Shown here one piece after another: positions 27,660-51,961 of a stretch of 64,000 bases of DNA. Made by a program: the position numbers and the translations under genes. Within the stretch, counting starts at the first letter, position 1; every line of letters begins with the position of its first letter. Below the pieces are notes generated by a model. It saw only the letters and a program-made list of their open reading frames with translations. It was not told the origin of the DNA and ran no database searches. Origin of the DNA: Omnitrophica WOR_2 bacterium GWF2_43_52 (GTDB lineage Bacteria > Omnitrophota > Gorgyraeia > Gygaellales > UBA12090); NCBI GenBank assembly GCA_001805445.1, contig MHGF01000003.1:184429-248428 (forward strand), read 5' to 3'.

Positions 27660-27688
27660 TTTTGGGAAATAGGAGGAAAACAAAATTT

Positions 27689-31387: not shown

Positions 31388-31404
31388 TGGCATAGAAATT
31401 GCTA
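31388..31404 (+). promoter_or_regulatory. Sigma-54 (-24/-12) promoter TGGCAT-agaaa-TTGCT upstream of the sugar-transferase / PEP-CTERM operon
   Basis: Matches the consensus TGGCAC-N5-TTGCW in 9 of 10 specified positions. Lies about 90 nt upstream of ATG 31494 in an AT-rich 380-bp intergenic region. rpoN and an NtrC-family activator are encoded in the same window. Confidence 0.5.
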
Positions 31405-33113: not shown

Positions 33114-33127
33114 AACTGGAGGCATAT

Positions 33128-33991: not shown

Positions 33992-34120
33992 TAAACACCC
34001 AAGCTTGACGTTACAAATTTCCTAAAAATAACAGGAAAACGCGGCTTGCTATATATAACGTAATAATACCAACATTTAAAAGTAACTGCCCTTGCAGACT
34101 CAATCAAAAGGAGAAGCAAA

Positions 34121-34771: not shown

Positions 34772-34928
34772 GAAGCACCCAAGCTTGACGTTACAAATTT
34801 CCTAGAAATAACGGGAAACGCGGCTTGTTACATATATAACGTAATACTACCAACATTAAAGAGCGATTATCCTTGCAGATTTAAATTGGTTGCGGGGAGA
34901 TTCAATCAAAAAGAGAGGAGAACCATAG

Positions 34929-35891: not shown

Positions 35892-35961
35892 TCATCGTCT
35901 TGTGACATGGTGACTTTGTGACTTGTGACTCTATAAGTTTTTTAAATCTACAGTAGAGGAG

Positions 35962-36879: not shown

Positions 36880-37332
36880 CTATTCTTTATATAAGATCCC
36901 AAGGCAAGCTCCGAGGAGGATATAGCTTACTAAATCATTTATTATCCAGTAGAAGATTAAGCCTGAAGCCATCGTCGTACTCATGGCTAAGAGTAAGCGT
37001 GAAGGTAAAAAGCCAAGAAGCCAAATAAAGAATCCATAGGTAAGCCCTTTTGCCATTCCTTTTCCCGGAAGAGCCTTAGACAAAAAGCCATAGCCTAACG
37101 TTGTAAGTAGAGCGATAAAAATTTTGAGTATTCCCATTGCCAGCAGCCATGGTGTACGCGCCTTAAGCATAGCCGTGTTACAGATAGCTACAGGCTCCAG
37201 GAAATATACCCATTTAAACAGCCATTGGCAGGTCAACATGCCCCAAAGGTTACTCACCATACCCGTAACCAAGCCTACCACAACAATCTTTTTCCACTTC
37301 ATTTTTGCATCCCCTTTCAATAAAAGTATCAT
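36880..37332 (-). CDS. Small polytopic membrane protein, unknown function
   Basis: 150 aa with four predicted hydrophobic helices. No motif recognised. Confidence 0.35.
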   Translation of the reverse strand: MILLLKGDAKMKWKKIVVVGLVTGMVSNLWGMLTCQWLFKWVYFLEPVAICNTAMLKARTPWLLAMGILKIFIALLTTLGYGFLSKALPGKGMAKGLTYGFFIWLLGFLPSRLLLAMSTTMASGLIFYWIINDLVSYILLGACLGILYKE

Positions 37333-37457: not shown

Positions 37458-38291
37458 ATGCAGAGAATCGCGGAACATATACATCCTGAGGAATTCTCGG
37501 GAATAAATTACCGGGTCGCCCGCACAAGAGAAGAGATAGAGCAGGCCTACGCGCTCGTCTATAAAGAATATCTGAAGAAGGGCTATACTAAGAAAAATAA
37601 TAGCGGATTACGATTTTCCATCTATAACGCCCTGCCCCTGACAACCACTTTTATCGCTGCTACCAACACTAACCATATCGCCGCCACGGCAACGGTTATC
37701 TCCGATTCACCAATAGGCTTGCCTATGGATGAGCTCTATCAGAAGGAATTGTCAACATTCAGAGGCCAAGGCAAAAAACTATGCGAAATTTCAATGCTTG
37801 CCACTGACAATACCCTCCTGCGCCATGAGCCGCTAGCATCGCCTCTTAAGAAACTATTACCCTTATTCATCCTTTTTAAAACACTTCTTGACTATACTCA
37901 AGACATCCTGAAATCGGATATTATGTACATCACTATACATCCTAAGTATAAAACCGCCTTTAATTTGCTGGCATTTAAAGACTTGAGCGGAGTAAAAAGC
38001 TATCAAGAAGTCAATGGCGCCCCCGCGATAGGCCAATATGTAGATTTTCCCACCATGGCCCAGGAGTTACGTAAACCAGGGAAAGAAAAACTCTATGCCA
38101 TATTTATCATTAATAAAACAGACCATTCAAAATTCGAGAATAAGCTTGCTTTTAGCCTTGAGGACTTACGATATTTTTTCTCGGAAAAAAGCGACATCTT
38201 TAAAACCGCGCCCCAGGCGCATAAGGAATATATTGAGCGCTGTTATTCTACAGGAGAGCATTCATTATCTTCTTTACGCGAATTAACGTAA
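37458..38291 (+). CDS. GNAT-fold acyltransferase; resembles exosortase-system-associated N-acyl amino acid synthase-like acyltransferases (paralog A)
   Basis: 277 aa. It shares a conserved core (YRVAR…EEIEQAYALVYKEYLKKGY…SIYNALP…ATATVISDSPIGLPMDELY…CEISMLA) with the paralog at 48093-48935. The size and pattern resemble the autoinducer-synthase/FeeM-like N-acyltransferase fold. Its position next to the exosortase locus supports the call. Confidence 0.35.
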   Translation: MQRIAEHIHPEEFSGINYRVARTREEIEQAYALVYKEYLKKGYTKKNNSGLRFSIYNALPLTTTFIAATNTNHIAATATVISDSPIGLPMDELYQKELSTFRGQGKKLCEISMLATDNTLLRHEPLASPLKKLLPLFILFKTLLDYTQDILKSDIMYITIHPKYKTAFNLLAFKDLSGVKSYQEVNGAPAIGQYVDFPTMAQELRKPGKEKLYAIFIINKTDHSKFENKLAFSLEDLRYFFSEKSDIFKTAPQAHKEYIERCYSTGEHSLSSLRELT

Positions 38292-38402
38292 GAGTTCAGC
38301 TTTTAGAAGCATTCTCTTTATAAGATTGCTTCTCCGCCTTCGGCGGATCGCAATGACACCGATACGAATTAACCGGTAGTCCTTAAAATCTAATTCCAGG
38401 AC

Positions 38403-39953
38403 GTGCTAAAAAACCTTCTCGCAGTATACGCAAGGCACATTAAAGGTTTATCTTGTTCAAGCCGGGTTATCAATTTTTCATTCGCGAAACATAAAGCAAA
38501 ACCCTTCCTTATTCAGCCTGATGAAAACCGCAGCCTAACTTTCCAAGAGCTAGAAACACTGACTGAAAAAGCCGTTTTACTCTTAGCAGAAAAAGGTATC
38601 GGGGAAGCAGAGGTAGCGGCGTTTAGCGCTTCTAACTGTATAGACTACTTTATAATCAGAGCGGCCTGCCATATACGCGGAGTTATCTTCTTCGGGTTAC
38701 CACCGACCCTTACCCAAGAGCAAACTATCCATTTCCTGACTGTCTCAAAGGCAAAAATTTTCTTTTATCAGAACCGCGATGACGCGGCAATTGAGGAAAT
38801 AAAGGCAAAGGCTCAAGTAAAATACCTCGTGGAACTTAACACTGGCTTTCATAGCACAACCACAGACGAGGCTAAGCCTCGTAAAACGAGGCTAAGCCTC
38901 GTAACCGACGGCAATCAATGCGCTACGTTTAATCTCAGTTCCGCCACAACAAGCAAAACCCCAAAGATAATCCGGCTCTCGGATACTAACTGGATAGAAA
39001 GCCTCTATGGCTATATACGTAATGCCACACTAAAAACCGCTCAACGCAATGTTTTTTTCTGCAGTGTGCCTCTTTTGACCGCTGGCTCTACCACATTCCT
39101 GCCTTGCCTTCTATCAGGCTTTAGCTGCCTGGTAGTAAAAGAAACTATTGCCATAGAGCATGTGGTTAGCTATAGTATACAGTATAACGTTACCCGGCTC
39201 TATATTACGCCCAGCAGGCTCTTAGAATTATTAGAGTGGTGTAAAATACATAACCAGCATTTTAGCGCGTTAGAGAGTATCGTTACCGGAACCGAGAGGA
39301 TTCCCACGCTGCGGCTCAAAGAGGCAATCGACTACTTCGGGCCAATTATCAGCGTTGGCTACGGAATGGCGGAGGCGCTTCCTCCGATTTCGTTACTCTC
39401 ACCTGGCGTCTATCATAAATTAGGTAGTGTGGGGAAAATCGCCAAAGGGGTAAAGATTAAAATTACCGACGAGGGAAGAATCGCCATTAAAAGCAAGACG
39501 GTAAGCATGGGGTACTTGGATAATCCGACTGAAACCTCCCAGCATTTTAAAGACGGCTGGTTTTACAGCGATGATTACGGGTATATAGATAAAGATAAAT
39601 ATCTTTATATCTTCGGCAGGAAAGAGGAGATTTTAACTGAGAGCCCGCGCCGTATTTTTGCCAAGGAAGCAGAAGACAAGCTCTACACCCTTGCCTTTAT
39701 TAACCGATGCGCTGTCTTAAGTAGAAACGCTCAGATGTATATTTTCGCATCCCTACGCGAAGCCATAGGAAACGATCAAGCAAAAAATGCGATCCAGAAA
39801 ATTTTCGATGAAAACTTCAAAAACATCCTTGCCCTTAAAAAAATCATCATCAAAGAAGCCTTACCCATCAACGCCTTTGGAAAACTTGATAGGAGAAGGT
39901 TAGAAGAGGAAATAACTATAGCCTGTGCAACTGAAACATTGTTTACATTTTAG
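38403..39953 (+). CDS. Divergent AMP-dependent synthetase/ligase (acyl-activating enzyme)
   Basis: A degenerate A3 motif LSSATTSKTPKII. A8-like motifs …YSDDYGYIDKDKYLYIFGRKEEIL… and GYGMAEA. The CDS contains an in-frame REP B tandem. Confidence 0.45.
   Translation: MLKNLLAVYARHIKGLSCSSRVINFSFAKHKAKPFLIQPDENRSLTFQELETLTEKAVLLLAEKGIGEAEVAAFSASNCIDYFIIRAACHIRGVIFFGLPPTLTQEQTIHFLTVSKAKIFFYQNRDDAAIEEIKAKAQVKYLVELNTGFHSTTTDEAKPRKTRLSLVTDGNQCATFNLSSATTSKTPKIIRLSDTNWIESLYGYIRNATLKTAQRNVFFCSVPLLTAGSTTFLPCLLSGFSCLVVKETIAIEHVVSYSIQYNVTRLYITPSRLLELLEWCKIHNQHFSALESIVTGTERIPTLRLKEAIDYFGPIISVGYGMAEALPPISLLSPGVYHKLGSVGKIAKGVKIKITDEGRIAIKSKTVSMGYLDNPTETSQHFKDGWFYSDDYGYIDKDKYLYIFGRKEEILTESPRRIFAKEAEDKLYTLAFINRCAVLSRNAQMYIFASLREAIGNDQAKNAIQKIFDENFKNILALKKIIIKEALPINAFGKLDRRRLEEEITIACATETLFTF
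38866..38905 (+). repeat. Two tandem REP family B units (ACGAGGCTAAGCCTCGTAA x2) embedded in-frame in the AMP-ligase CDS
   Basis: acgaggctaagcctcgtaaaacgaggctaagcctcgtaac, translated as …DEAKPRKTRLSLVTD…. Confidence 0.55.
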
Positions 39954-39956
39954 ACC

Positions 39957-41177
39957 GGGTACATCGTTTACACTTTTTTAGTTACGAATAATCTTGTTCT
40001 TTCTCAAATCTACGGAACCGAGAACGTAAAAGCTATACTGAAGCTGCCAGAGGCCATCGGCAGTTTCTTTAAGACCGACAGGCTGTTTTGCGAGTAATCC
40101 TGTAACATAAAACATCCGGCCCTTGAATTTAATCTCTCCGCTGTGTTTGACGTGGCGAACCGTGTACTCGTAACCATATTCCGGAGAATGCGGATGTTCC
40201 ACATAAGGCCGATTTGACTTTTTATAGAATTCATTCGGCGTTTGATCATTAAGCGATTCATGCGGACGCTCGTTGTTGTAATCTAGACGAAAAATATCAA
40301 AACGCTCTTGTTGTTCCTTGAAATTCCTGGCAATCTGATCTAGGGCATCGCTTTTTAGCGTTCGGTGCATACACTCATGCCGTCCGTTCTCTTGGGGGCA
40401 GCCTTTTTCAATCCGTTCTGGGATGATCCCTAATTGAATAAACCAGATAGATAAACGACTAAGTCCTCCAACGCCTTTACCGACGAATGGTGTACCATTA
40501 TCGCTGCGAATGGCGTCAGGCAACCCGTATTTCCGAAACGTTTCAATTAAGACTTCTTTCGTCGGAGCGTAACGTGGGCCTTCTAGCGCTTTACAACCTA
40601 AGAGAAATCGGCTTAAGTTATCGCTGATCGTCAACGGGTAACACACATGACCGTTTTTCATATAAAATTGGCCCTTATAATCAATGCTCCAGACATCGTT
40701 GGGAGCTTTACATTCACAAAAAGGCTGCGTATAGGGCGGTACACGTAAACGTTTCTTTCGTTTTTCAACGAGGCCTTCTTTCTTGAGCCAATACGCTATG
40801 GTGCTGACTGCGGGTAGCTCAAGATTCGAATATTGACGCTTTAACTGAGCTCGTATCTTTCGGGGCCCGCGTTTACGATTCTTAAGCTTTTCTTGAATTA
40901 CAAGATTGATAACTTTTTCCGGCGTCTTATGAGGGCAAGTTTTTGGCGCACGGCTTTGTTCTTTGAGCCCTTCGATTCCACGCTGTTCGTACCGCTCAAT
41001 CAATTTATAAACTGTTGGGCGGCTGATTCCGTATTTTTGAGAAAGATCGGTTAAGCTAAGATTTTTTGATTGCCAATCGGCAATAAGCTGAATCTTTTGA
41101 TCCATAGCACTTATTATTTTCCACGGCATGGCATGTTACCTCCTTGCCGTATAGTATAATATGTAAACTATGTACCC
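39957..41177 (-). mobile_element. IS481-family insertion sequence (about 1.22 kb) with 16-bp terminal inverted repeats
   Basis: Left end GGGTACATCGTTTACA (39957-39972) versus the reverse complement of the right end TGTAAACTATGTACCC (41162-41177), matching at 15 of 16 positions. A single DDE transposase gene lies inside. Confidence 0.65.
39978..41129 (-). CDS. IS481-family DDE transposase (HTH + rve integrase core)
   Basis: The N-terminal HTH (…LSQKYGISRPTVYKLIERY…) and an integrase catalytic core with conserved D, D, E spacing (…WSIDYKGQF…SDNGTPF…NGRHECMHRTLK…). An AGGAGG RBS precedes the start. Confidence 0.75.
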   Translation of the reverse strand: MPWKIISAMDQKIQLIADWQSKNLSLTDLSQKYGISRPTVYKLIERYEQRGIEGLKEQSRAPKTCPHKTPEKVINLVIQEKLKNRKRGPRKIRAQLKRQYSNLELPAVSTIAYWLKKEGLVEKRKKRLRVPPYTQPFCECKAPNDVWSIDYKGQFYMKNGHVCYPLTISDNLSRFLLGCKALEGPRYAPTKEVLIETFRKYGLPDAIRSDNGTPFVGKGVGGLSRLSIWFIQLGIIPERIEKGCPQENGRHECMHRTLKSDALDQIARNFKEQQERFDIFRLDYNNERPHESLNDQTPNEFYKKSNRPYVEHPHSPEYGYEYTVRHVKHSGEIKFKGRMFYVTGLLAKQPVGLKETADGLWQLQYSFYVLGSVDLRKNKIIRN

Positions 41178-41223
41178 AGTCTATTTTGTAAACTATGTTA
41201 CCAGTTTGTACCGCCCCCACATT

Positions 41224-41246
41224 CCCTCTCCCCGAAGGGGAGAGGG
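41224..41246. repeat. Family C hairpin CCCTCTCCCC-gaag-GGGGAGAGGG
   Basis: A perfect 10-bp inverted repeat directly upstream of the DUF559 gene. A partner hairpin sits at 41634-41654, directly downstream. Confidence 0.5.
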
Positions 41247-41264
41247 CGAGGGTGAGGGAACATA

Positions 41265-41633
41265 ATGAAACGAAATAGCATAGCAATAGCCAAAAAGCTC
41301 AGGAAGAATCAGACAGATGCTGAAGGTAAACTTTGGGCCATATTACGTAATCGTCAGCTATCCGGAGTAAAATTTAGAAGGCAATTTCCTATTGGCAGCT
41401 ATATTTTAGATTTTTACTCTCCAGAGTATAAACTTGGTATTGAAGCTGATGGTGGACAGCATTATGTAGATAAAGGCAAAGGACAGGACGAACAGAGAAC
41501 TAGAGAATTGAGTGTCTATGGGATAAAGATAGTAAGATTTAATGATTTAGATGTATTGAATAATATTGAGGGAGTTTATGAAATTATTCAGGAAAGTATA
41601 GAAAGCAAGAGGAAACAATTCCCCTCACCTTAA
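41265..41633 (+). CDS. DUF559-family endonuclease-domain protein (Vsr/restriction-endonuclease-like fold)
   Basis: …EGKLWAILRNRQLSGVKFRRQFPIGSYILDFYSPEYKLGIEADGGQHY…RTRELSVYGIKIVRFNDLDV… matches the DUF559 consensus. The gene is bracketed by family C hairpins. Confidence 0.6.
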   Translation: MKRNSIAIAKKLRKNQTDAEGKLWAILRNRQLSGVKFRRQFPIGSYILDFYSPEYKLGIEADGGQHYVDKGKGQDEQRTRELSVYGIKIVRFNDLDVLNNIEGVYEIIQESIESKRKQFPSP

Positions 41634-41654
41634 TCCTCTCCCCAAAGGGGAGAG
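41634..41654. repeat. Family C hairpin CCTCTCCCC-aaa-GGGGAGAGG
   Basis: The inverted repeat overlaps the stop codon of the DUF559 gene. Confidence 0.5.
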
Positions 41655-41658
41655 GATC

Positions 41659-43530
41659 ATGATGAAAGGGAAAAATTTTATGGCGCAGATAACCCTTTGG
41701 AATTCTATAGCAAAAAGAAGGCGCTCCTTGAGCGACACCTTTTACGATAATGGCCTGGCTACCTTAAAGGGATACCTGGAAGATAGAAACCATACGGTAG
41801 AGGTTATTGACTGGGCACGGGACGATTTCTTTACTATGCTTACCGTGCCTTTTTTAGCGCGCTGGATCAGAAATATTTACTCATCAATGGCTCGTTCAAA
41901 AAGCAAGCTCGCCGGGCGCTGTTTAGGCTTTATCTCCGTTTACCTGCAAGAAATACACGCCATTATCCAGGAAGTCAGATTTAAAAAACAGGCACGGCAC
42001 TTGGCCTATGAATTAAAGAATGACAACGCGCGTATTTTCGGGGTAAAACTCTGGTATGGAGAAGCCTTTAAGAACGCCAAAGAGCTTATTACTTTAATAA
42101 ATAAAATCGCCCCTGAAATTATCACTATCGCCGGGGGTTATCATGTTACTCTTTACGAAGAACACCTCTTAGAAAACAGCACTTTTGATTTAGGGGTAGT
42201 CTGTGAAGGAGAATTCGCCTTAGAGAAGATATTAGCTATCATTGACCAAAATAAAGAAAACTGGAATAAACATAATGTTTTAAGCACGATCATCGACGCG
42301 GCTGAAAAAGGAGAGATAGAAAATCTTATTTATCGTAAAAACGGAAAAATACACAAGACCAAACGCCGGCATATTGCCGGCCACAGCTTAAAAAGTATCC
42401 CGCGATATACGATGAATGAAAATAAGGTGCGTATCCATGTAATGGTTGAATCTTTAGGCTGTGATTGGGGCAAGTGCCATTTTTGCGTGCATCCGCATTT
42501 TTACAGCAGTTATTCCTTGAGGAGCCCTGATGAAGTAGTCAATGAAATAGAAGAGATGCTTAAAATCGGTATCGGCGTTTTTCGTTTTGCCGGCTCTGAC
42601 ACACCTCCGCATTTTGGGGCGCGGATTGCCCAAAAGATCAAAGAGAGGCGCTTAAAGGTTGTTTTTGGCATAGGTTCACGGGCGATAAAAGGAGCGCAAA
42701 AACAATATGAACATCTGGTAACTTCTTATACCACGCTTATTGAGAATGGTTTGCGCGCGGTATTTATGGGAGGAGAAACAGGGAATGATATCATTAACGA
42801 AGAAGTCATGAACAAAGGCGTCTTTTTTGATGATATTGTTACCACTATAAAAGCGCTCAGGGAAGCGGAAAAGAGAGCAGGGGCAAAGGTATTTTTAAGT
42901 TTAGCCTTCATTTATCCGGCTCCCCTTTTAGGAAAAGTAACCCTTGCGCAGGTAAAAGAAGATAATCTACGGCTTTTAAAGGAAACAATGCCGGATAGCG
43001 TCATGATTACACCCCCGGGGCCGTTCTTACATACCAAGTGGTATGACGAAAAAGATAAATTCGGCTTCAAGGTTGACGAACACATCATCAGACAGGCAAT
43101 GGAATACGAGTATGTCCTATATAAGCCACCTCATCTATGGCCAAATTTAGGAATATCTCTTGAAGGAAAACCTTTCAAAAAACTGCTGGCTGAATGCAAT
43201 GAATTCAGAAACATTGTAGAGAAGGAATTGCATATCCCCACCGATCTTTCCGACGAACATTTTTTGATGTTTTACGCCGCGGGGATCAGGGAAAAAGCGG
43301 AAGTATCGAAGGCCAAAGAAGAAACTATGCTGGATATTGTTTCCTGTGATTACAGCCTGACGAAAAATATTTCCATGAAGGTAAATGAATTTAGCCTCAA
43401 TGTAAGCCGAGAAAACATTACCATTTTACCCCTCACCCCACCCTCTCCCCAGCGGGGAGAGGAAAAGAGAGAGGACTCACCCCAGCCTCTCCCTAGGGGG
43501 AGAGGGAAAGGGTTAGGGGGGATAATTTAG
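41659..43530 (+). CDS. B12-binding-domain radical SAM enzyme (class B-like); the 3' end runs into family C repeats
   Basis: N-terminal Rossmann-like B12-binding region (…ITIAGGYHVTLYEEHL…). A radical SAM core with the Cys cluster CDWGKCHFC and GIGVFRFAGSD. The last ~30 codons (…PLTPPSPQRGEEKRE…PRGRGKG…) are translated hairpin repeats (43442-43504), so the true C-terminus is uncertain. Confidence 0.5.
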   Translation: MMKGKNFMAQITLWNSIAKRRRSLSDTFYDNGLATLKGYLEDRNHTVEVIDWARDDFFTMLTVPFLARWIRNIYSSMARSKSKLAGRCLGFISVYLQEIHAIIQEVRFKKQARHLAYELKNDNARIFGVKLWYGEAFKNAKELITLINKIAPEIITIAGGYHVTLYEEHLLENSTFDLGVVCEGEFALEKILAIIDQNKENWNKHNVLSTIIDAAEKGEIENLIYRKNGKIHKTKRRHIAGHSLKSIPRYTMNENKVRIHVMVESLGCDWGKCHFCVHPHFYSSYSLRSPDEVVNEIEEMLKIGIGVFRFAGSDTPPHFGARIAQKIKERRLKVVFGIGSRAIKGAQKQYEHLVTSYTTLIENGLRAVFMGGETGNDIINEEVMNKGVFFDDIVTTIKALREAEKRAGAKVFLSLAFIYPAPLLGKVTLAQVKEDNLRLLKETMPDSVMITPPGPFLHTKWYDEKDKFGFKVDEHIIRQAMEYEYVLYKPPHLWPNLGISLEGKPFKKLLAECNEFRNIVEKELHIPTDLSDEHFLMFYAAGIREKAEVSKAKEETMLDIVSCDYSLTKNISMKVNEFSLNVSRENITILPLTPPSPQRGEEKREDSPQPLPRGRGKGLGGII

Positions 43531-43537
43531 AAACACT

Positions 43538-44209
43538 ATGAGCATTGTCAAATTAGAAAAAATCTGTAAGAATTACACCTTAGGAAAAACAACCTTGAAC
43601 GCGCTCAAGAATATAGACTTAAACGTGGAACAAGGTGAATTCATTGCCCTTGCCGGGCCATCAGGCAGCGGGAAGACTACCGCCTTAAATATTATCGGCT
43701 GTATTGATAAACCAAGTTCAGGAAAGGTGTTTATCGATGAGTGTGAAATATCCTATCTCTCAAGCGACGGACTCGCGGATATTCGCGCCGGGAAAATAGG
43801 GTTTATCTTTCAAAATTTTAATCTCTTGCCAGTATTAAATGCCCTGGAAAATGTGGAATACCCGCTTTTACATAAAAAGATGGCTTTTCATAAAAAGAGA
43901 AAACTGGCGCAAGAGGCGCTGGAGAGCGTCGGCTTGGGGAAGTACGCCCGACACCGCCCGATGGAATTAAGCGGCGGACAGCAGCAAAGGGTCGCGATAG
44001 CGCGGGCGCTTAGCACTAGCCCGCTTATGATTTTAGCGGATGAGCCGACCGCGAACCTCGACCATGTAACAGGAACGGAAATCCTGACGCTTATGAAAAA
44101 AATGAACCTTGAGCGTAAAACCACCTTTATTTTCTCAACCCATGACCAAAAGGTCATGGAAATAGCCGATAAAGTGGTAAGGCTTTGGGACGGAGAAATC
44201 AGCTCATGA
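43538..44209 (+). CDS. ABC transporter ATP-binding protein (LolD/MacB/FtsE-type)
   Basis: Walker A GPSGSGKTT, signature LSGGQQQRVAIARAL, Walker B ILADEPT. Confidence 0.8.
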   Translation: MSIVKLEKICKNYTLGKTTLNALKNIDLNVEQGEFIALAGPSGSGKTTALNIIGCIDKPSSGKVFIDECEISYLSSDGLADIRAGKIGFIFQNFNLLPVLNALENVEYPLLHKKMAFHKKRKLAQEALESVGLGKYARHRPMELSGGQQQRVAIARALSTSPLMILADEPTANLDHVTGTEILTLMKKMNLERKTTFIFSTHDQKVMEIADKVVRLWDGEISS

Positions 44210-45471: not shown

Positions 45472-45485
45472 AAGAAGGAGCGAAA

Positions 45486-45546
45486 ATCAACCTCCGCGGT
45501 TGATTTTTTTCTCCGACGACAAATTTCCGCAACCTCCGCGGTTGAA
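45486..45546. repeat. REP family A variant composite in reverse orientation (ATCAACCTCCGCGGTTGAT - linker - CAACCTCCGCGGTTGAA)
   Basis: The linker is the reverse complement of the AAATTTGTCGTCGG linker seen at 27620 and 30440. Confidence 0.6.
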
Positions 45547-45560
45547 TTGGGTTTGAGGAT

Positions 45561-46304
45561 ATGCTGCGTACATTCATAACAATTACGATTGCCTGGTTTT
45601 TATTACCTGGTTTTCCTGCCTTTGCGCAATTAACCTCAGCTGAAATTGTGGAAAGAATTGATGAGGCGCGAAACCCCCAGATAGATTATACGGTAACGGT
45701 AGAGATTACCACCTATTCCAATAACCAACTCTCAAAATCAGCCACTTACGAAGTGCTCGTTAAAGGGAAAGAGAAGACTGTGGTAAAAACAATTTTACCC
45801 GCGGTAGAAAAGGGGAGAGTCTTACTCATGCTCAATGAAAACCTCTGGGCGTTTCTTCCGGAGGTTTCTAAACCGCTGCGTATCTCATTACAGGAAAGGC
45901 TTATCGGAGAAGTGGCTAACGGCGATGTTGCCCGCGTTAATTTCGCGGGGGATTATACTCCGATAGTATTACGGACAGAAACCTTAAACGATAAAGACTG
46001 TTACGTCTTAGAGCTTACGGCTAAAGATGACTCTGTAACCTATGGGAAGGTAATCGTATGGGCGGAAAAAGAAACCTTATGGCCGCGTAAGGCAGAATTT
46101 TATGCTCTCTCAGGCCGTATGCTAAAAACCTGCGCGTACCAGGAGTATCAGCTGCTCGGCGACAGGATACGGCCCACCCAATTGGTAATGGAGGGGCCTC
46201 TTGCCAAAGGCAAGAAATCAATTATACGCTATAGCGATATCCATATTGAAGAACTGCCGGAGAAATATTTTACCAAAGAGTATATGAAAAAGTTCATGGA
46301 GTAA
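45561..46304 (+). CDS. LolA-like outer-membrane lipoprotein-sorting-fold protein (periplasmic carrier)
   Basis: A signal peptide and a 230-aa beta-rich protein with the pattern of 'outer membrane lipoprotein-sorting protein' families that accompany LolCDE-like ABC systems and DUF1302/DUF1329 proteins. Confidence 0.4.
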   Translation: MLRTFITITIAWFLLPGFPAFAQLTSAEIVERIDEARNPQIDYTVTVEITTYSNNQLSKSATYEVLVKGKEKTVVKTILPAVEKGRVLLMLNENLWAFLPEVSKPLRISLQERLIGEVANGDVARVNFAGDYTPIVLRTETLNDKDCYVLELTAKDDSVTYGKVIVWAEKETLWPRKAEFYALSGRMLKTCAYQEYQLLGDRIRPTQLVMEGPLAKGKKSIIRYSDIHIEELPEKYFTKEYMKKFME

Positions 46305-46411
46305 CTCTAACAGGCAGCAGGATAAAAAATAACCAATCAGCAAATTCCAAACACCAAATAAGCTCCAATACCCAATAACCAAACCTATCGATTTGTATAC
46401 ACGGAGGAAAA

Positions 46412-47701
46412 ATGAAGAAGGCCATAATGATCGCGCTCGCTGTAGGCATTTACGCCTGTATCTGCGGCATAAGCTCTGCCACCTTTGAAAAGATACAACT
46501 AAAACAGCAGGGAAGCATCAAGCAGGAAACCGCCTACCGCATAGGGCAGCCACGCGTTTTTAGCAAGATAAAAAACCAGATAGTTCTCATCGAAAGCGCG
46601 AAGTTAACCGATAAACTGAATTTTAAGATAACCGGGCGCTTTTATTATGACCTGGTGTATAATCTGGCCCATAATTTTCCTAATAACGTTGACTCCGACC
46701 AAAGACAAGAGGTTGAGTTACGCGACACCTACTTTGATTATTCAGACGGCCCGTTTGACATCCGCCTGGGCAAACAACAAATTGTCTGGGGGGAAGCTGT
46801 GGGGCTTTTTTTTGCGGATGTGGTAAACGCCAAGGATTTACGCGAATTTATCCTGCCTGAGTTTGACCTAATCCGTATCCCCCAGTGGGGTATTGACGCG
46901 GAATACACAAAAAAGAATTTTCACGCCGAATTCCTCTGGCTGCCCATCCTTGAATTTAACAAAATAGGGGTAAGAGGAGCGGAATTTGAGTTTCCGTATC
47001 CGGTGCCGGAGGGCACCGTATTTACTGCCACAGACCCCGCGCAGCCGAAAAACAGCTTCAAAAACAGCGAAACAGGCATGCGCCTGTCCTATCTTTTAAA
47101 CGGCTGGGATATCAGCGCCTTTTACCTCTATACCTGGGAAAAATTCCCTATTTACTACCGCAGTATCGCCTCGGGTGCCTACAACTTTAGCCCATCCTAC
47201 AAAAGGCTTCATACCACAGGCTTGACCTTTGCCAGGGAACTCAACGATATTATTTACAAAGGGGAATTTGTCATGACTCCTCAGGGGTATTTTCCGCTCT
47301 TTGACGATACCGATCAAGACGGAATCACCCGCAAGGATTACCTTGATTACCTTCTGGGAATAGACTTTACAGTCCTGTCAAAGATCGATAACAATATCCA
47401 GTTTATGCAGAGAATAATTTTTGACTATGATAAGCATCTGGTAAACGAAAATCCGGTGCGTAATTCAATTTCCTATAGAATCAGCAGGGGATTCCTTGAT
47501 GATACGCTGAACGCTGAATTCTTAATCATCGCCAGCCTTATGGAAAAAGATTTCCTTTATAGGCCAAAGATTACCTATACGTTTGGGAACAACTGGAAAT
47601 TCAGGATAGGAATGGATATCTTTAAGGGTGAGCCTTCAGGGGTATTCGGAAAATTCAAGAAGAAAAGCAGGGTATACAGCGAAGTTACTTTCAGCTTTTA
47701 A
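46412..47701 (+). CDS. DUF1302-family outer-membrane protein (putative beta-barrel)
   Basis: A signal peptide with the conserved …RLGKQQIVWGEAVGLFFADVVN… block typical of DUF1302. It ends in aromatic residues (…VTFSF), as outer-membrane beta-barrels do. Confidence 0.45.
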   Translation: MKKAIMIALAVGIYACICGISSATFEKIQLKQQGSIKQETAYRIGQPRVFSKIKNQIVLIESAKLTDKLNFKITGRFYYDLVYNLAHNFPNNVDSDQRQEVELRDTYFDYSDGPFDIRLGKQQIVWGEAVGLFFADVVNAKDLREFILPEFDLIRIPQWGIDAEYTKKNFHAEFLWLPILEFNKIGVRGAEFEFPYPVPEGTVFTATDPAQPKNSFKNSETGMRLSYLLNGWDISAFYLYTWEKFPIYYRSIASGAYNFSPSYKRLHTTGLTFARELNDIIYKGEFVMTPQGYFPLFDDTDQDGITRKDYLDYLLGIDFTVLSKIDNNIQFMQRIIFDYDKHLVNENPVRNSISYRISRGFLDDTLNAEFLIIASLMEKDFLYRPKITYTFGNNWKFRIGMDIFKGEPSGVFGKFKKKSRVYSEVTFSF

Positions 47702-48090
47702 CCCGTAAAAACGTTGTCTACAGCCGAAAGCAGTTCCTCCTCAGAGCAAGATTTCTGAAGGTAGAGCCTCGTAGTAGAGATTGCTGAAAAATCACTTTGG
47801 ATTCCTTCCCGATGAGCACCTAAGTAATCGCCGGGTATATTGGTAAGAAAGATGATCGGGATACTGCTACAATCCGGCAGGGCTTTAAGCTGCTTTGCCA
47901 CCTCATCGCCTAACATCTTAGGCATTAACACATCCAGAATAATCAGGTCAGGCTTGTATGATTTTGCTTTAGACAAGCCATCCTCACCGTCATAGGCGGT
48001 CATAACCTCAAAGCCATGATTCTCCAGGGTGAACTTCATTATCACCACGATATCTGGCTCATCATCCACAATTAAGATTCTTTTGGCCAT
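47698..48090 (-). CDS. Single-domain response regulator (CheY-like receiver)
   Basis: …ILIVDDEPDIVVIMKFTLE…PDLIILDVLMPKMLG…PIIFLT… carries the phospho-acceptor Asp and the Thr/Lys motifs. Confidence 0.7.
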   Translation of the reverse strand: MAKRILIVDDEPDIVVIMKFTLENHGFEVMTAYDGEDGLSKAKSYKPDLIILDVLMPKMLGDEVAKQLKALPDCSSIPIIFLTNIPGDYLGAHREGIQSDFSAISTTRLYLQKSCSEEELLSAVDNVFTG

Positions 48091-48092
48091 GG

Positions 48093-48935
48093 CTATTTCT
48101 TAGTAAAGCCTGAAAAATCAAAGGAAGGGTAGCACTTTCTAAGATACTCCATCTCAAGAGAAGTAGCCTTTCTGAAAACATCTGTTTTCTCATGAAAAAA
48201 ATACCCCAGGTCTGACACGCCAAACGAAGCCTTACCGGCCAAGCTCACCGCTGGAGTCGATTTTTCAAAAAACATCTTATAGAGGCCCTCTTTATTTTTC
48301 TCTTTACATTCAGACTCCAGAGTAGCGAATTCAACGCACTTGGCAATGGCGGGGGCGCCATTGGCATTATCATAGGTTTTGAGCCCTCCCAAATCCTTGA
48401 ATAAAAGAAAATCATAGGTCAGGCTGTGCTTAGGATTTATGGTAATGCACATATAATCTAAGCCAAGGCGCCTGTAGGCATAATCAAAGATAAGCTTAAA
48501 GAGATTAAAAATAAAAAACATCTTTTTAGAGTTAAGAAGCATCGAGACGCCATTCTTAAAAAGCTCTGTGTCGCTGGCAAGCATCGAAATCTCGCAGATT
48601 TTCTTACCGTTTGAGCGCAGGACTGATAATTCCTCATGGTAGATCTCATCCATGGGAAGCCCCAAAGGCGAATCTGGAATCAGGGTCGCGGTCGCGAATA
48701 TTTCATTTTCAAGAATGGTGACAAAACTGGCAGTCTCCGGCAGGGCATTATATATGGAAAGCTTTAACCGCGAATCGGATTCCCTGCAATAGCCGCGTTT
48801 TAAATACTCCCTGTACACAAGGGCATAGGCTTTCTCCAATTCATTTCTGGAGCGGGCAACCCGGTATTCTATCTGCTCAAGAAAGCGCTGCAGGCTTGCC
48901 TGTTCTGCCGCTGTGGCTGTTTTTACTGTATCCAT
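48093..48935 (-). CDS. GNAT-fold acyltransferase, paralog B of the 37458 protein (exosortase-associated N-acyl amino acid synthase-like)
   Basis: The same conserved blocks as paralog A (YRVARSRNELEKAYALVYREYLKRGY…SIYNALP…ATATLIPDSPLGLPMDEIY…CEISMLASD). Confidence 0.35.
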   Translation of the reverse strand: MDTVKTATAAEQASLQRFLEQIEYRVARSRNELEKAYALVYREYLKRGYCRESDSRLKLSIYNALPETASFVTILENEIFATATLIPDSPLGLPMDEIYHEELSVLRSNGKKICEISMLASDTELFKNGVSMLLNSKKMFFIFNLFKLIFDYAYRRLGLDYMCITINPKHSLTYDFLLFKDLGGLKTYDNANGAPAIAKCVEFATLESECKEKNKEGLYKMFFEKSTPAVSLAGKASFGVSDLGYFFHEKTDVFRKATSLEMEYLRKCYPSFDFSGFTKK

Positions 48936-48944
48936 ACGAAACCT

Positions 48945-49367
48945 TTATTGTAAATATTTAAGGAGAATCTTTTCGCTTATATATTCAATATAGCGCCTGC
49001 GGTCGGTGTCATTCATTTTATGAAACTTTACCCCAATTGTATACCCGTGTTTTTTCTTCGCGCACCAGCATACCTCTGACTCAACAACAATAGGCTTCAT
49101 GGATTCCTCAAGAAAGAGTATCTTAAGATAAAGCCTGGTGCCAAGAGCTACCTTGATGTCGCTGCCAAACCTGACGCCCTGGCCGCTGATATCATCTATC
49201 AGAAAGGGGCCGCACCATTCTTCAAGGAGGCTGGAGCTGTACAAAAGCCTTACCTGAATAGCTAAGCGCTCGCTTTTACGCTTATCTTTGGAAATAAACT
49301 CCCTGACATCGCTGATTCGTATATCGAATGACTTTTTAATCATACGTATGTACCCTCTTTTAAGCAT
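48945..49367 (-). CDS. PilZ-domain c-di-GMP-binding protein
   Basis: RKSER (RxxxR) and DISGQGVRF (DxSxxG) motifs with PilZ spacing. The gene overlaps the 3' end of the upstream acyl-ligase gene. Confidence 0.55.
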   Translation of the reverse strand: MLKRGYIRMIKKSFDIRISDVREFISKDKRKSERLAIQVRLLYSSSLLEEWCGPFLIDDISGQGVRFGSDIKVALGTRLYLKILFLEESMKPIVVESEVCWCAKKKHGYTIGVKFHKMNDTDRRRYIEYISEKILLKYLQ

Positions 49368-51961
49368 ATCAATCGTGCCCTTAAATTATCGGCTATATTT
49401 TGATACATGTCAATAGTTTCTCCCTGAGAAAAGCCTAACGCCTCAGAAGATGCTGCCTTTCCGAAAACAACCTCAATCTTTCCAAACGACGGGAACATTG
49501 CATACGGCGGCCAGGCTTCATAAGCCCCGCGGATATAGACAGGCACCGCGTCTACCTGAAGTTCTTTAATCAAAATACCGATGCCACGCTTAAACTCCTG
49601 GATTTCCCCATCTATTGAACGTATGCCTTCAGGGAAAAGGCAGAGCGCCTTTTTATTCCTCAAGACATAACTGCACATGGTTAAGGTATCAGCTACATGA
49701 GCGGCTGGGTCAATGGGGATAAGGCGAAAAAGTTGTTTTGACCACCTAAGAAAAGGATGTTCAAGGTACGCACGATAGCCCAGGAAAAAGGTAAAAAGCA
49801 AGGCGCGATAACCCATCGCCGCTACCAATAACGGCACATCTAAATAGCTCGAATGGTTGGGACAAAGGATAAAAGGGCCCTTTTGAGGAATGTTTTCACT
49901 GCCGCTTACTTTGATACGCAAAAATAACCGCATCAGAAAAGATACCATGGCAATAGCCATAAAATTTATCAGCCGATAGAAGAAGCCTTGTTTAAATGAA
50001 AGGGGCATTTTTTTACCGGAGCCGCCGTGCGTGATAGAGTCCCAGCTTACCGCTTCGCTTTGGCGCGCGCTACTGATTTGTGAGCCATGCAATTTTTCCA
50101 AGACATCCCGCACGGTCGCGATAAAGAAAAAATCTTTTTCATCTAAGGCGGCTCCTGAAAGCTTTTGAAACTCAAAGAAAATCCCGATGCGCTCCAAGGA
50201 ATCTAATCCAAGGTCAAGTTCAAGATGCTCATCCAGACTCACCTTACGCTTGAGTTTTTCACAAAGATACTGCATCGCCTTGCGGCAAAGAGGAGAGGAA
50301 AGAAGGCGGCGGTCAGAGGATGAAAGAGTTTCATCCTTCAGAAAATCATGATGGAGTACATAGCGGTGCTTTATATCAAAACGCCTCAGGTTCCCCATTA
50401 CGGTTTCAGGAAGGCTGTCTTTAATCAGGGTATAGTTTTTAATTCTTTTATAATCAGAGAGGCCTTGGGATAGCCTTTCTATTTCCCAATGGATTCTGTC
50501 TTTTATTTGGGATACGCCATGTAACGCGCAATACTTAAAATCAGGTAAAATTAAGGCGGTTAAAAAATGCTCTTTTCCTTCCTGAGAGAAGTACACGCAT
50601 ATCTGTTTTACATAAAGGCTTTTTCTGTACCAGGATTCAAGTTCTACCACATTAATCCTTCTATTCCCGGGGGCTATACTTTCTTCATCTTTTCTACCCT
50701 GAACATAAAGAAAGCCGTGCTCGTCAACATAGCCTACGTCGCCGGTAGGAAACCAATCACCCTGAAAAGCTAAAGAGGCATTTGCTTCGTCTTTATAATA
50801 ACCGCGGAAACCCGCGGCATCTTTAACCATGATTTCGCCCGGGGCGCCAGGAGAAGACTCCGCTATTTTTATTTCAAACCCGGGAGCCGGACTGCCCACC
50901 GCGGAGGGGGGGAGCTTATCGGATAAGCTAAAAGCTATAAAAGGAGATATTTCAGTTACTCCGTAAAGCGTTAAAAATTGAAGGCCTGCCCGGGAAAAGA
51001 ATACGCTTATATCGCTTGATACATTTGCTACGCTAGAGACTATGAGACGAAGCTTCGTACCCAGAACAGAATTAATGTAAGCTTTATAACGCCGCTGTTC
51101 ACTGAAAAAACTCCTCAACCATATTTTTTTGAGAAAGGAAAAAGAGCGAACTCCATCATTGAGCTTTTTATAGAAGATCTGAAGCAGCTCTGGAGCCCCG
51201 GCTATGACGCTCACCGCGGTCTTTCGCATACACTCGGTGATTTCATCCCACTGGTCATTCTTGGGAAAACTAACGCTCGCGCCTATGCATAAAGGTAAGA
51301 GGAGATTAAACGTAAGCGGATACGCGTGGCAAAGAGGAAGCAATGAAATAAAACAATCATCGCTGGTAACGAAACCCGCTTGCCGCATCGTTTGTATCCA
51401 TGCAAGAGACGCTTGGTTCGTAATTGCTACAGCCTTTGGTTTATTGCTTTGGCCTTGAGTGTAAACGGCCATCGCTGTGTGTCCGGGAGCAACATCCTTA
51501 ACTAAGTGCTGTTTCGAGGAAACGCGCGTAAAATGCTTAAGCAATTCCTCTGAATCAATACCGATGAGGGGTATACGCGCTTCATGCGCGATTACTTTTA
51601 TTTTCTCTGTGAGGTCCACGGTAGTGATGAGGCATTTCACATCCAAGGATACAAGCGCATCTTTAAGCTCAGGAGCATCCAACGCATGATAAAGAGGAAG
51701 AGCAATCGCTCCCATACCTACAACTCCAAAAAAGGCAGCCGGCCAGAAGCGGCTATTATCAAGAATAAGGGCAACCGTATCTGCCTGGTTTATATGATGC
51801 TCCCTTAAAAACGCGGTTACCGATAATGACTGTTGGTATAGCTCTTGATAGGTAAAAGAATGGTAGGCATCATTCTCCTTAAACAAAACAGCTTTTTTTT
51901 GAGGATTCTTTCGCGAGGCCTCCTCAAAGGCCTTAAAAAGTGTAAAAATAGACTCGTCCAT
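49340..51961 (-). CDS. Tri-domain fatty-acyl-AMP ligase / acyl carrier protein / lysophospholipid acyltransferase (AMP-binding - PP-binding - PlsC-like)
   Basis: AMP-binding A3 motif YTQGQSNKPKAV and A8 motif TGDVGYVDEHGFLYVQGRKDE. Carrier domain with the Ser attachment site LDLGLDSLE. LPLAT motifs NHSSYLD (HxxxxD) and FPEGIRS. Confidence 0.65.
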   Translation of the reverse strand: MDESIFTLFKAFEEASRKNPQKKAVLFKENDAYHSFTYQELYQQSLSVTAFLREHHINQADTVALILDNSRFWPAAFFGVVGMGAIALPLYHALDAPELKDALVSLDVKCLITTVDLTEKIKVIAHEARIPLIGIDSEELLKHFTRVSSKQHLVKDVAPGHTAMAVYTQGQSNKPKAVAITNQASLAWIQTMRQAGFVTSDDCFISLLPLCHAYPLTFNLLLPLCIGASVSFPKNDQWDEITECMRKTAVSVIAGAPELLQIFYKKLNDGVRSFSFLKKIWLRSFFSEQRRYKAYINSVLGTKLRLIVSSVANVSSDISVFFSRAGLQFLTLYGVTEISPFIAFSLSDKLPPSAVGSPAPGFEIKIAESSPGAPGEIMVKDAAGFRGYYKDEANASLAFQGDWFPTGDVGYVDEHGFLYVQGRKDEESIAPGNRRINVVELESWYRKSLYVKQICVYFSQEGKEHFLTALILPDFKYCALHGVSQIKDRIHWEIERLSQGLSDYKRIKNYTLIKDSLPETVMGNLRRFDIKHRYVLHHDFLKDETLSSSDRRLLSSPLCRKAMQYLCEKLKRKVSLDEHLELDLGLDSLERIGIFFEFQKLSGAALDEKDFFFIATVRDVLEKLHGSQISSARQSEAVSWDSITHGGSGKKMPLSFKQGFFYRLINFMAIAMVSFLMRLFLRIKVSGSENIPQKGPFILCPNHSSYLDVPLLVAAMGYRALLFTFFLGYRAYLEHPFLRWSKQLFRLIPIDPAAHVADTLTMCSYVLRNKKALCLFPEGIRSIDGEIQEFKRGIGILIKELQVDAVPVYIRGAYEAWPPYAMFPSFGKIEVVFGKAASSEALGFSQGETIDMYQNIADNLRARLICLKEGTYV

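Follow-up and report, generated by a model that had tools for sequence, protein, structure and literature searches.

A putative PilZ-FeeM lipid-synthesis and export module beside an exosortase/PEP-CTERM locus in an Omnitrophota genome

A cluster of acyl-handling and export genes lies next to an exosortase/PEP-CTERM locus on contig MHGF01000003.1 of Omnitrophica WOR_2 bacterium GWF2_43_52, in which the proteins of the cluster have all been deposited as "hypothetical protein". The stretch analyzed here, referred to as the window, is the 64,000 nucleotides (nt) at positions 184,429 to 248,428 of that contig, and window coordinates are counted from its first letter. Our analysis suggests, with somewhat more confidence than doubt, that the region is a variant of a lipid-synthesis and export system widespread in Omnitrophota and forms part of an exosortase/exopolysaccharide (EPS), or biofilm-matrix, programme. 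The likely product of the cluster is a lipid or surfactant in which an amino acid bears a fatty acyl group, made under the control of cyclic di-GMP (c-di-GMP) and shipped to the outer membrane.

The genes are arranged as two convergent operons, and not as the tight block of co-directional pairs that was described in an earlier note made from the sequence alone. The plus-strand operon (37458 to 47701), assigned to modification and export, encodes a FeeM paralog (FeeM_a), a stand-alone AMP ligase, a B12 radical SAM enzyme, a MacB-type ATP-binding cassette (ABC) transporter, a LolA-like carrier and a DUF1302 protein. The minus-strand operon (51961 to 47698), assigned to synthesis, encodes a tri-domain protein composed of adenylation, acyl carrier and PlsC-type acyltransferase domains, followed by a PilZ protein, a second FeeM paralog (FeeM_b) and a receiver domain. 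The block is also interrupted, an IS481 element and a DUF559 cassette being present between the AMP ligase and radical SAM genes. Every open reading frame (ORF) named in the earlier note does appear in the ORF list of the window where the note had placed it, and hidden Markov model (HMM) searches with Pfam and NCBIfam upheld the domain assignments.

The grouping of these genes is far beyond chance. With a profile of the FeeM clade, 22 genome loci were obtained, most of them from Omnitrophota and three from Scalindua, and every window protein was searched against them by tblastn; individual loci are cited below by L numbers. The gene sets recur in the 22 independent loci. The recurrence spans at least three phyla, with conserved gene order, overlapping ORFs and modular replacement. 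For instance, the full string of AMP ligase, B12 radical SAM, ABC ATPase, FtsX permease, LolA-like and DUF1302 genes is found in L014, L016, L024 and L030, and part of it in L021. Similarly, orthologs of the tri-domain protein were located in 12 loci, where they abut the PilZ-FeeM pair with ORFs that overlap or nearly touch. The proposal of a conserved acyl-handling and export unit is therefore supported by synteny. Alternatively, the genes could be unrelated neighbours of the exosortase locus, namely an Aas-like recycler of lysophospholipids, a generic ABC exporter and orphan acyltransferases. The window copy does look like one in flux, with its two mobile elements and a degenerate adenylation domain, and no family reaches an equivalog cutoff. 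Nevertheless, sets of genes that recur in 22 loci from at least three phyla, in conserved order and with modular replacement, strongly disfavour this explanation and leave it extremely improbable.

FeeM_a (37458–38291, plus strand) and FeeM_b (48093–48935, minus strand), the latter resembling N-acyl amino acid synthases, match PF21926 with 100.3 and 117.1 bits, respectively, against a gathering threshold of 27. The family profile of FeeM_b finds FeeM itself in the PDB (2G0B, E = 8.5e-30). The AlphaFold2 (AF2) model of FeeM_b, with a predicted local distance difference test (pLDDT) value of 91.3, again has 2G0B as its top Foldseek match (E = 2.6e-15, target TM-score 0.83–0.85). In FeeM_b, Glu115 is shared by all of 61 family members and lines up with the Glu in the KKLAEV motif of FeeM; the equivalent catalytic glutamates are Glu95 in FeeM and Glu103 in Nas354. 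FeeM_a carries the catalytic Glu in the motif GKKLCEISML. The HMM score, the profile-to-PDB match, the modelled GNAT-like fold and the invariant catalytic Glu are concordant, and as judged from sequence and model the paralogs are FeeM-type enzymes. In Nas354, mutation of Glu103 (E103A) abolishes the production of N-acyl-tyrosine (PMC4897644). Unlike FeeM, the clade found here has in addition some 65 residues at the C-terminus that are modelled with confidence as a helical extension (about 215–280), the predicted interface with PilZ. FeeM_a could have been taken for a recent duplicate of FeeM_b, but the two are only 48% identical and FeeM_a shares at most 53% identity with any retrieved family member, which rejects this origin. 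FeeM_a is missing at the equivalent position in L016.

The earlier note had proposed a search with TIGR03694, the exosortase acyltransferase family. Neither paralog matches this model even at E ≤ 10 (cutoff 111.95 bits), and both therefore fall outside that family; the model works in the library, since the FeeM homologs of Deferrisoma camini score 17–20 bits with it. The only NCBIfam match for both window paralogs and for the homolog in L033 is the N-terminus (about 6–264) of PRK14852 (NF011425), which is also by far the best match for two FeeM homologs of D. camini. ThiF genes of the sister loci that use an MMPL transporter (see below) align to positions 307–585 of this 989-residue model (e.g. 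L027:13021–13914). FeeM and ThiF thus match separate parts of PRK14852, from which it follows that FeeM-ThiF fusions exist, in a family curated as "hypothetical protein". The fusion mirrors the gene neighbourhood of the MMPL-type loci.

The partner most constantly found with FeeM is the stand-alone PilZ protein (48945–49367, minus strand; PF07238, 51 bits), a putative c-di-GMP receptor. PilZ is followed by FeeM, adjacent and on the same strand, in all 22 related loci, and the gene is hence not an incidental member of the block. In the window protein, RKSER at residue 30 fits the canonical motif RxxxR and DISGQG at residue 59 fits DxSxxG, and RxxxR is kept in all 23 orthologous PilZ hits that span the N-terminus. 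The PilZ-FeeM pair occurs by itself amid housekeeping genes in Scalindua and is for this reason taken as the minimal unit. In L021 (4513–7646) the pair is tandemly duplicated, and the second PilZ copy is apparently frameshifted.

The occurrence of the PilZ-FeeM pair alone in Scalindua is also what one would expect if the product were a secreted mono-acylated N-acyl amino acid, such as a biosurfactant, an antibiotic or a signal, instead of a membrane aminolipid, made by FeeM and pumped out by the exporter, with PlsC acting elsewhere, e.g. in phospholipid remodelling. The characterised FeeM-type enzymes all yield mono-acylated surfactants or antibiotics that leave Escherichia coli (PMC4897644; for the stieleriacines, PMC7293339), and the FeeM fold resembles that of acyl-homoserine lactone synthases. 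However, in many loci translational coupling ties PilZ-FeeM to the tri-domain gene, which encodes the PlsC domain, and a periplasmic LolA-like carrier with an outer-membrane barrel is better suited to inserting a very hydrophobic cargo than to simple efflux. A mono-acylated secreted product is thus unlikely.

The tri-domain protein (49340–51961, minus strand) has an AMP-binding domain at residues 12–389 and a PlsC-type acyltransferase domain at residues 682–810 (PF01553, 83.2 bits). The PlsC structure 5KYM in the PDB aligns to residues 679–850 (E = 1.6e-11), and the PlsC motifs HX4D (NHSSYLD at 702) and FPEGIRS (776) are intact. The middle segment, when excised, matches the PP-binding family PF00550 with 24.0 bits against a cutoff of 20.8; the carrier serine, Ser588 in GLDSLE, is invariant in 125 of 125 aligned sequences. 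Of the best 150 matches in an exhaustive HMMER search with this protein, at least 124 were full-length representatives, and together with the tblastn results this rejects the near-uniqueness implied by a word-indexed search, in which a single hit of 41% identity was obtained. The label fatty-acyl-AMP ligase (FAAL), which had been given to the adenylation domain, was not adopted for want of specific support: coenzyme A (CoA) ligases lead the PDB sequence matches, and the FAAL 3PBK is a weak one (E = 3.4e-9). The domain order had been described as the reverse of that in Aas, and this holds, as Aas-type profiles place the acyltransferase before the ligase. The scores against such profiles are far from their cutoffs (PRK08043, 124.9 vs 886; PRK08633, 195.9 vs 1221).

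The adenylation domain of the window protein is degenerate. Its motifs were compared in an alignment of the window protein with 124 full-length representatives, to which the 11 syntenic orthologs were added. The A3 P-loop (residues 167–178) reads YTQGQSNKPKAV against the family consensus YTSGTTGxPKGV, and A5 (residues 332–337) is LYGVTE against GYGLTE. In A10 (residues 522–529) the sequence is MGNLRR against LGKxKR, which replaces the catalytic Lys by Asn. This Lys is present in 123 of the 125 aligned sequences and in all 11 syntenic orthologs, which are canonical in A3, A5 and A10 alike; the degeneracy of the three motifs is confined to this genome or species. It does not come from sequencing error, as 19 contigs obtained from several samples encode one identical protein. 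ANL enzymes require the A10 lysine for adenylation, and the adenylation domain in this genome is therefore, by its sequence, probably catalytically inactive. The claim that the block encodes every step from fatty-acid activation onwards is consequently doubtful here, as the tri-domain protein has lost the A10 lysine and has a degenerate P-loop.

A second adenylating enzyme is encoded in the other operon. The stand-alone AMP ligase (38403–39953, plus strand; PF00501) is an ANL-superfamily protein resembling fatty-acid CoA ligases. Its best NCBIfam match is a long-chain fatty-acid CoA ligase (146 bits), and its A10 motif, GKLDR, is intact. Against TIGR03098, the exosortase A-associated ligase family to which it had been suggested to be compared, it scores 73.9 bits with a cutoff of 592.35 and is not a member. 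In the related loci the ligase gene always lies directly upstream of that for the B12 radical SAM enzyme (41659–43530, plus strand; PF02310 and PF04055), a putative cobalamin-dependent, class B protein. The latter stays under every NCBIfam cutoff, the best being BchE with 54 bits, and a PDB sequence search with it returned nothing useful. Its AF2 model (pLDDT 90.5) finds OxsB, TsrM and CysS as best folds at 10–14% identity, which places the protein in the cobalamin radical SAM class and no finer. The cluster motif CDWGKCHFC (residues 268–276; C268-x4-C273-x2-C276) is invariant in 59 homologs, and its spacing is CX4CX2C as against the usual CX3CX2C of class B enzymes. The window protein ends in a low-confidence tail of 32 residues rich in Pro, Gly and Arg.

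Homologs of the radical SAM protein with 45–84% identity also occur in Deferrisoma, Desulfobacterota, Spirochaetia and archaeal metagenome-assembled genomes (MAGs). The order FeeM, ligase, radical SAM is kept in Deferrisoma camini and in L033. In D. camini, a cultured organism (L031, JAFN01000001.1, 1676772–1698559; radical SAM homolog of 49% identity), a FeeM gene on the opposite strand is followed by FeeM, AMP ligase, B12 radical SAM and a LysA-like decarboxylase, and a PEP-CTERM protein and an acyl-ACP (acyl carrier protein) thioesterase are encoded nearby. Assignment of the decarboxylase to TIGR03099 was rejected (141 bits vs a cutoff of 478; LysA, 297.6 vs 297.9). A Desulfobacterota MAG has the order sigma-54 regulator, LolA-like, unknown protein, FeeM, MMPL, AMP ligase and radical SAM. 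In an archaeal MAG the ligase and radical SAM genes adjoin those of a patatin and a palmitoyl thioesterase, and on one further contig the radical SAM gene adjoins a ketoacyl synthase and GAF, histidine kinase (HK) and sigma-54 genes. CysS acts on a pantetheine-tethered substrate, and the cases of GrsA/B and Hgm show that B12 radical SAM enzymes can alter lipid chains. It is probable that the ligase, with the radical SAM enzyme as its constant partner, activates an acyl chain which the latter then alters.

The remaining genes of the plus-strand operon suggest how the product would leave the inner membrane. They encode an ABC ATPase of LolD/MacB/DevA type (43538–44209, plus strand; PF00005), which scores 222.1 with LolD TIGR02211 (cutoff 307.75) and 204.7 with DevA, and a MacB/LolCE-type permease (44185–45471, plus strand; likely start 44206) with the domains PF12704 (MacB_PCD) and PF02687 (FtsX). 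The permease scores 105.8 bits with LolCE TIGR02212 (cutoff 362.45), and both scores are thus below the equivalog cutoffs for lipoprotein release by LolCDE. They are followed by a periplasmic LolA-like carrier (45561–46304, plus strand; PF17131, 165.3 bits), whose cleavable N-terminal signal peptide ends in AFA-Q with no lipobox Cys, and by a DUF1302 outer-membrane beta-barrel (46412–47701, plus strand; PF06980, 73.7 bits), which begins with a signal peptide and ends in an aromatic beta-signal (...VTFSF). DUF1302 proteins are predicted to form an 18-strand barrel, for which there is no solved structure. Orthologs of the LolA-like protein in sister loci match DUF1329 as well.

The inner-membrane part of this set is exchangeable. 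In L026, L027 and L029, an MMPL/HAE3 RND transporter, a ThiF-family protein (PRK08223), a LolA_like/DUF1329 protein and a DUF1302 protein are encoded beside PilZ-FeeM, and the same arrangement is found in part in L009, L011, L012 and L015. In such MMPL-type loci the RND transporter, with or without ThiF, takes the place of the ABC, ligase and radical SAM genes, and the LolA-like and DUF1302 genes are kept. L024 carries both an MMPL and an ABC transporter, and L012 has MMPL together with the AMP ligase. Two unrelated inner-membrane engines hence work with one and the same pair of LolA-like and DUF1302 proteins, next to the same synthesis genes. Transporters of the MMPL/HpnN type export lipids, and the exchange of engines with retention of the two partners argues for lipid export. 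The ABC transporter, LolA-like carrier and DUF1302 barrel would constitute a Lol-like route for a lipid cargo. Each variant of the export operon comes with one adenylating enzyme, either the ANL ligase or ThiF, and we suspect that this enzyme activates a carboxylate of the pathway.

A Lol-like transporter and carrier would also be in place if the FeeM-like enzymes acylated proteins, at lysines or N-termini of PEP-CTERM or envelope proteins, and the machinery then sorted lipoproteins. HlyC and the TAAT family are acyl-ACP-dependent protein acyltransferases with GNAT-like folds. However, the nearest relative of the paralogs in both sequence and fold is FeeM, an enzyme that acylates free amino acids and has this catalytic Glu too, LolD and LolCE are matched with scores far under the equivalog cutoffs, and the exchange for an MMPL lipid transporter in sister loci suits lipid over protein cargo. 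Protein acylation is accordingly a highly improbable role.

The steps of the favoured lipid pathway can be proposed as follows. Once PilZ has bound c-di-GMP, FeeM_b would be able to transfer a fatty acyl group from an acyl carrier to the amino group of an amino acid. The tri-domain protein would be the dedicated source of this carrier, and its PlsC domain would add a second, ester-linked acyl chain in the logic of OlsB/OlsA; an N-acyltransferase followed by a PlsC-like O-acyltransferase is a known two-step route to aminolipids (PMC11631085). In the orthologs, the adenylation domain could load the tri-domain carrier by itself. With the domain apparently dead in this genome, the carrier would be loaded in trans through the stand-alone AMP ligase or from fatty-acid synthesis, or else the pathway would be impaired. 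The ligase and radical SAM pair, together with FeeM_a, would supply or alter the acyl chain. The MacB-type ABC transporter would then extract the lipid from the inner membrane, the soluble LolA-like protein would ferry it through the periplasm, and the DUF1302 barrel would take it up in the outer membrane, where the product may participate in the exosortase/EPS surface programme. Of this scheme, the data establish the identities of the domains, the fold of FeeM_b, the state of the motifs, the synteny and the exchange of ABC for MMPL modules, from which the chemistry, the gating by c-di-GMP, the exporter's cargo and a functional tie to exosortase substrates are inferred.

The tie to exosortase is genetic. 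The exosortase, EpsI and five PEP-CTERM proteins noticed upstream of the module, and the sigma-54 regulators downstream of it, were confirmed in the window, and the linkage recurs in other genomes. An exosortase gene lies within 10 kb of the module in six loci (L009, L013, L015, L026, L027 and L029); EpsI accompanies it in five, the contig of L015 ending inside the exosortase gene, and a sugar transferase in all six. In most other loci an exosortase-type sugar transferase or the set of R01, TPR, HK and sigma-54 genes, described below, stands beside the module. This set flanks the tri-domain gene, with conserved synteny, in L007, L014 and L030, and in part in L009, L013, L015, L026, L027 and L029. 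The PEP-CTERM genes abut the module in the window, L016, L029 and L031. The earlier note had named two outcomes that would speak against it, housekeeping families and a lack of co-occurrence with exosortase in related genomes. The families found are not housekeeping ones, and the co-occurrence is seen in related loci. Taken as a whole, the earlier interpretation is upheld for the conserved unit and the exosortase linkage; the TIGRFAM memberships that it suggested were not upheld, and its claim to every step from fatty-acid activation is doubtful here.

With such linkage, the acylated amino acid might itself be the acceptor or anchor to which exosortase transfers the cleaved PEP-CTERM proteins, in parallel to archaeosortase and rhombosortase, which perform lipid attachment. 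The module is situated between the exosortase/EpsI/sugar-transferase genes and the regulators in the six loci, the PEP-CTERM genes abut it as listed above, and the published link of synthases to exosortase is still without a mechanism. However, the FeeM clade is outside TIGR03694 and the Scalindua loci have no exosortase genes nearby, so that an acceptor role appears quite unlikely. A more specific form, in which a hitherto undescribed amino-acid lipid modified by the radical SAM enzyme and carried along a Lol-like route would be the acceptor or anchor for PEP-CTERM proteins, is very doubtful. If true, it would give a biochemical function to the synthase-exosortase link, DUF1302 and PF17131 at once.

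Several observations weigh against the favoured reading, in which the module makes a c-di-GMP-controlled lipid for the exosortase/EPS programme. The degenerate adenylation domain and the splitting of the export operon by two mobile elements indicate that the window copy may be partly disabled or rewired. By analogy with Aas, the PlsC domain could re-acylate lysophospholipids instead. The FeeM paralogs are not members of the exosortase-associated TIGR03694, and none of the enzymes of this FeeM clade has yet been seen to yield a product. About half of the PilZ orthologs have Gly in place of the Ser of DxSxxG. In Scalindua, neither exporter nor exosortase is near the PilZ-FeeM pair, which can thus work outside this system. 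No membrane-fusion or LolB-like partner was seen at the locus. Lastly, a search upstream of the tri-domain gene gave no sigma-54 promoter that is consistent across the loci; a good site exists in L009 only, and the window has just a weak GG-N10-GC.

Parts of this picture have been published. A link between N-acyl amino acid synthases and exosortase/PEP-CTERM was reported in 2011 (Craig et al., as cited in PMC4897644, PMC7293339 and PMC11072679). The statement of the earlier note that no such pathway has an established product is overstated, since members of the FeeM family are established N-acyl amino acid synthases. A Methylomonas ExoAT mutant lost its polysaccharide band, which, like the published link, agrees with a tie of the module to exosortase. 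The fusion of a synthase to PilZ was published in 2016: the metagenomic Nas343 and Nas354 consist of a FeeM-like synthase, an 80-residue linker and PilZ, and when produced in E. coli they yield N-myristoyl-tyrosine (Thies et al. 2016, PMC4897644). Besides that paper, no literature was found that links a PilZ domain to N-acyl amino acids. The third element already published is a proposed DUF1302 export system. Clusters of DUF1302, DUF1329, BNR and RND genes cofit in Shewanella and Pseudomonas and have been proposed to export an envelope component (10.1101/072470; 10.1101/2020.07.04.188060). For DUF1302 with DUF1329, a published structure prediction reached an ipTM of 0.84. No literature was found in which Omnitrophota and exosortase are treated together in the present sense.

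The locus represents a distinct clade with a distinct architecture, in which observations that were previously separate are united. Like FeeM N-acyl amino acid synthases, the window paralogs have PF21926, the 2G0B fold, the catalytic Glu and a genetic link to PEP-CTERM/exosortase and EPS genes; unlike FeeM and the exosortase-profiled synthases, they are outside TIGR03694, carry the C-terminal extension of about 65 residues and are always paired with a PilZ gene. Nas343 and Nas354 are single polypeptides of synthase, linker and PilZ with no pathway context, whereas the window has a separate PilZ gene upstream of the synthase within a larger synthesis and export cluster. OlsB/OlsA, GlsB/GlsA and OlsF similarly have an N-acyltransferase and a PlsC-type O-acyltransferase encoded together, with the logic of an acyloxyacyl amino-acid lipid (PMC11631085). 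In the window, by comparison, the N-acyltransferase is of FeeM and not OlsB type, there being no other Pfam acyltransferase match, the O-acyltransferase is fused to adenylation and carrier domains, and the cluster also encodes an exporter of its own, a radical SAM enzyme and a putative c-di-GMP receptor. Aas and the LplT-Aas fusion of PRK08633 share with the tri-domain protein an ANL adenylation and a PlsC-type acyltransferase domain, and it has partial matches to the Aas-type profiles. It differs from them in the reversed order, the carrier in cis, scores far under cutoff and a context that is biosynthetic and not one of lysophospholipid recycling.

The export genes can be compared in the same way. 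The Shewanella and Pseudomonas clusters resemble the window in combining a DUF1302 barrel, a LolA/LolB-fold protein and an inner-membrane exporter, and in the window the PF06980 and PF17131 genes indeed stand next to ABC genes. The sister Omnitrophota loci further share the COG1033/HAE3-type MMPL transporter with those clusters. The window has a MacB-type ABC instead of RND, PF17131 instead of DUF1329 and cargo-synthesis genes alongside; no BNR partner was found there or at the sister export loci. LolCDE-LolA-LolB and DevBCA likewise rely on a type VII (MacB-like) ABC with a LolA-fold carrier, and the DevA-type similarity provides a precedent for lipid export by this ABC class, DevBCA being a glycolipid exporter. 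Unlike these systems, the window has a single permease gene, no LolB or membrane-fusion protein, and a DUF1302 barrel as the outer-membrane partner.

Exosortase/PEP-CTERM sorting, the DUF1302 and LolA-fold export clusters and the synthase-exosortase link have each been without a mechanism for more than ten years. The locus and its about 20 syntenic relatives join candidates for cargo synthesis, a putative c-di-GMP receptor, two alternative engines and the DUF1302/LolA-like pair beside exosortase. From this unit testable predictions follow, such as a PilZ-dependent N-acyl amino acid output and the binding of lipid by the LolA-like protein. The triad of FeeM, AMP ligase and B12 radical SAM in Deferrisoma camini offers an entry point in a cultured organism. 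The copy in the window genome itself has been remodelled, its adenylation domain being apparently dead and an IS481 element having been inserted, and this matters when genes are picked for expression.

The IS481-family element spans 39935–41199 on the minus strand, with a transposase at 39978–41129 (rve and HTH Pfam domains; NF033577, 200.5 bits, cutoff 224) and 38-nt terminal inverted repeats (39935–39972 and 41162–41199; 84% complementary). The left repeat overlaps the last codons of the AMP-ligase ORF at its very 3′ end, as a result of which the window ligase is about 10 residues longer than its orthologs. The element is present in several independent metagenome assemblies of this species. 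Adjacent to it, the DUF559 (Vsr-like endonuclease) cassette (41225–41655, plus strand; gene 41265–41633; PF04480, 112.9 bits) has 34-nt inverted repeats at 41225–41258 and 41622–41655 that contain the palindrome CCTCTCCCCGAAGGGGAGAGG. The DUF559 gene resembles a separate small mobile cassette beside the IS481 element. By tblastn, neither is present between the ligase and radical SAM genes in L014, L016, L024 and L030, where the gap is about 10 nt in L014 and about 100 nt in L024.

Upstream of the module, the window encodes an exosortase (29588–30400, plus strand), EpsI (30488–31108, plus strand), a polyprenyl glycosylphosphotransferase, or priming sugar transferase (31494–32345, plus strand), and the five PEP-CTERM proteins (32346–36765, plus strand), which are recognized by VIPEP...LRKK C-termini in their translations. 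The exosortase and EpsI pass the generic model TIGR02602 (167.7 vs a cutoff of 105.55) and TIGR02914 (107.2 vs 42.8), respectively. The scores are under the cutoffs that define the exosortase A (XrtA)/PrsK/PrsR system, with 186.7 against 208 for XrtA, 82.7 against 300 for PrsK and 406.8 against 502.6 for PrsR. A large EPS glycosyltransferase locus precedes the exosortase genes.

Downstream of the module, and divergent from the synthesis operon, a regulator and membrane-protein set occupies 52195–57606 on the plus strand. It comprises the polytopic membrane protein R01 (52195–53139), a TPR protein (53139–53984), the GAF histidine kinase that was scored against PrsK (53981–55189), the sigma-54 response regulator that was scored against PrsR (55182–56603) and a PocR-GAF protein (56587–57606), all on the plus strand; rpoN is also found downstream of the block with this set. 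The synthesis operon ends with a gene for a single-domain response-regulator receiver (47698–48090, minus strand; PF00072, 73.5 bits). A receiver gene directly after FeeM is found in L010, L014 and L030 as well, with 48–58% identity. A scan for TGGCAC-N5-TTGC gave 20 matches in the window with 26.8 expected by chance, and together with the promoter search upstream of the tri-domain gene it lends no support to control of the module by the neighbouring sigma-54 regulator. A sigma-70 promoter scan of the window was at chance level. Terminator-like sites numbered 35 against 18.4 in shuffles, the majority of them within ORFs, and thus neither of these two scans sets the operon boundaries.

Some minor features were noticed around the module. 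A sigma-54-like site with one mismatch, TGGCATAGAAATTGCT, lies at 31388–31403, about 90 nt upstream of the priming sugar transferase gene, and the transferase has near its N-terminus a PEP-CTERM-like stretch (APEPSSLFLILSG...; TIGR02595, 15.8 bits vs a cutoff of 16). Between the last PEP-CTERM gene and the module, a 150-residue membrane protein without a family match is encoded on the minus strand (36880–37332); its ortholog in L016 (10619–11041) has the same position and 46% identity. Within the EPS locus, a 1044-residue PcRGLX-like (rhamnogalacturonan-lyase-like) protein with three Pfam domains is encoded at 23593–26727, and a SPASM/twitch-type radical SAM protein is found amid the glycosyltransferases at 19078–20229. 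The same locus contains a homolog of IS200-like Y1 transposases (27662–28351; PF01797), and relatives of it are present beside the module in L027 (16402–17031) and between the receiver and DUF1302 genes in L014 (11437–11805).

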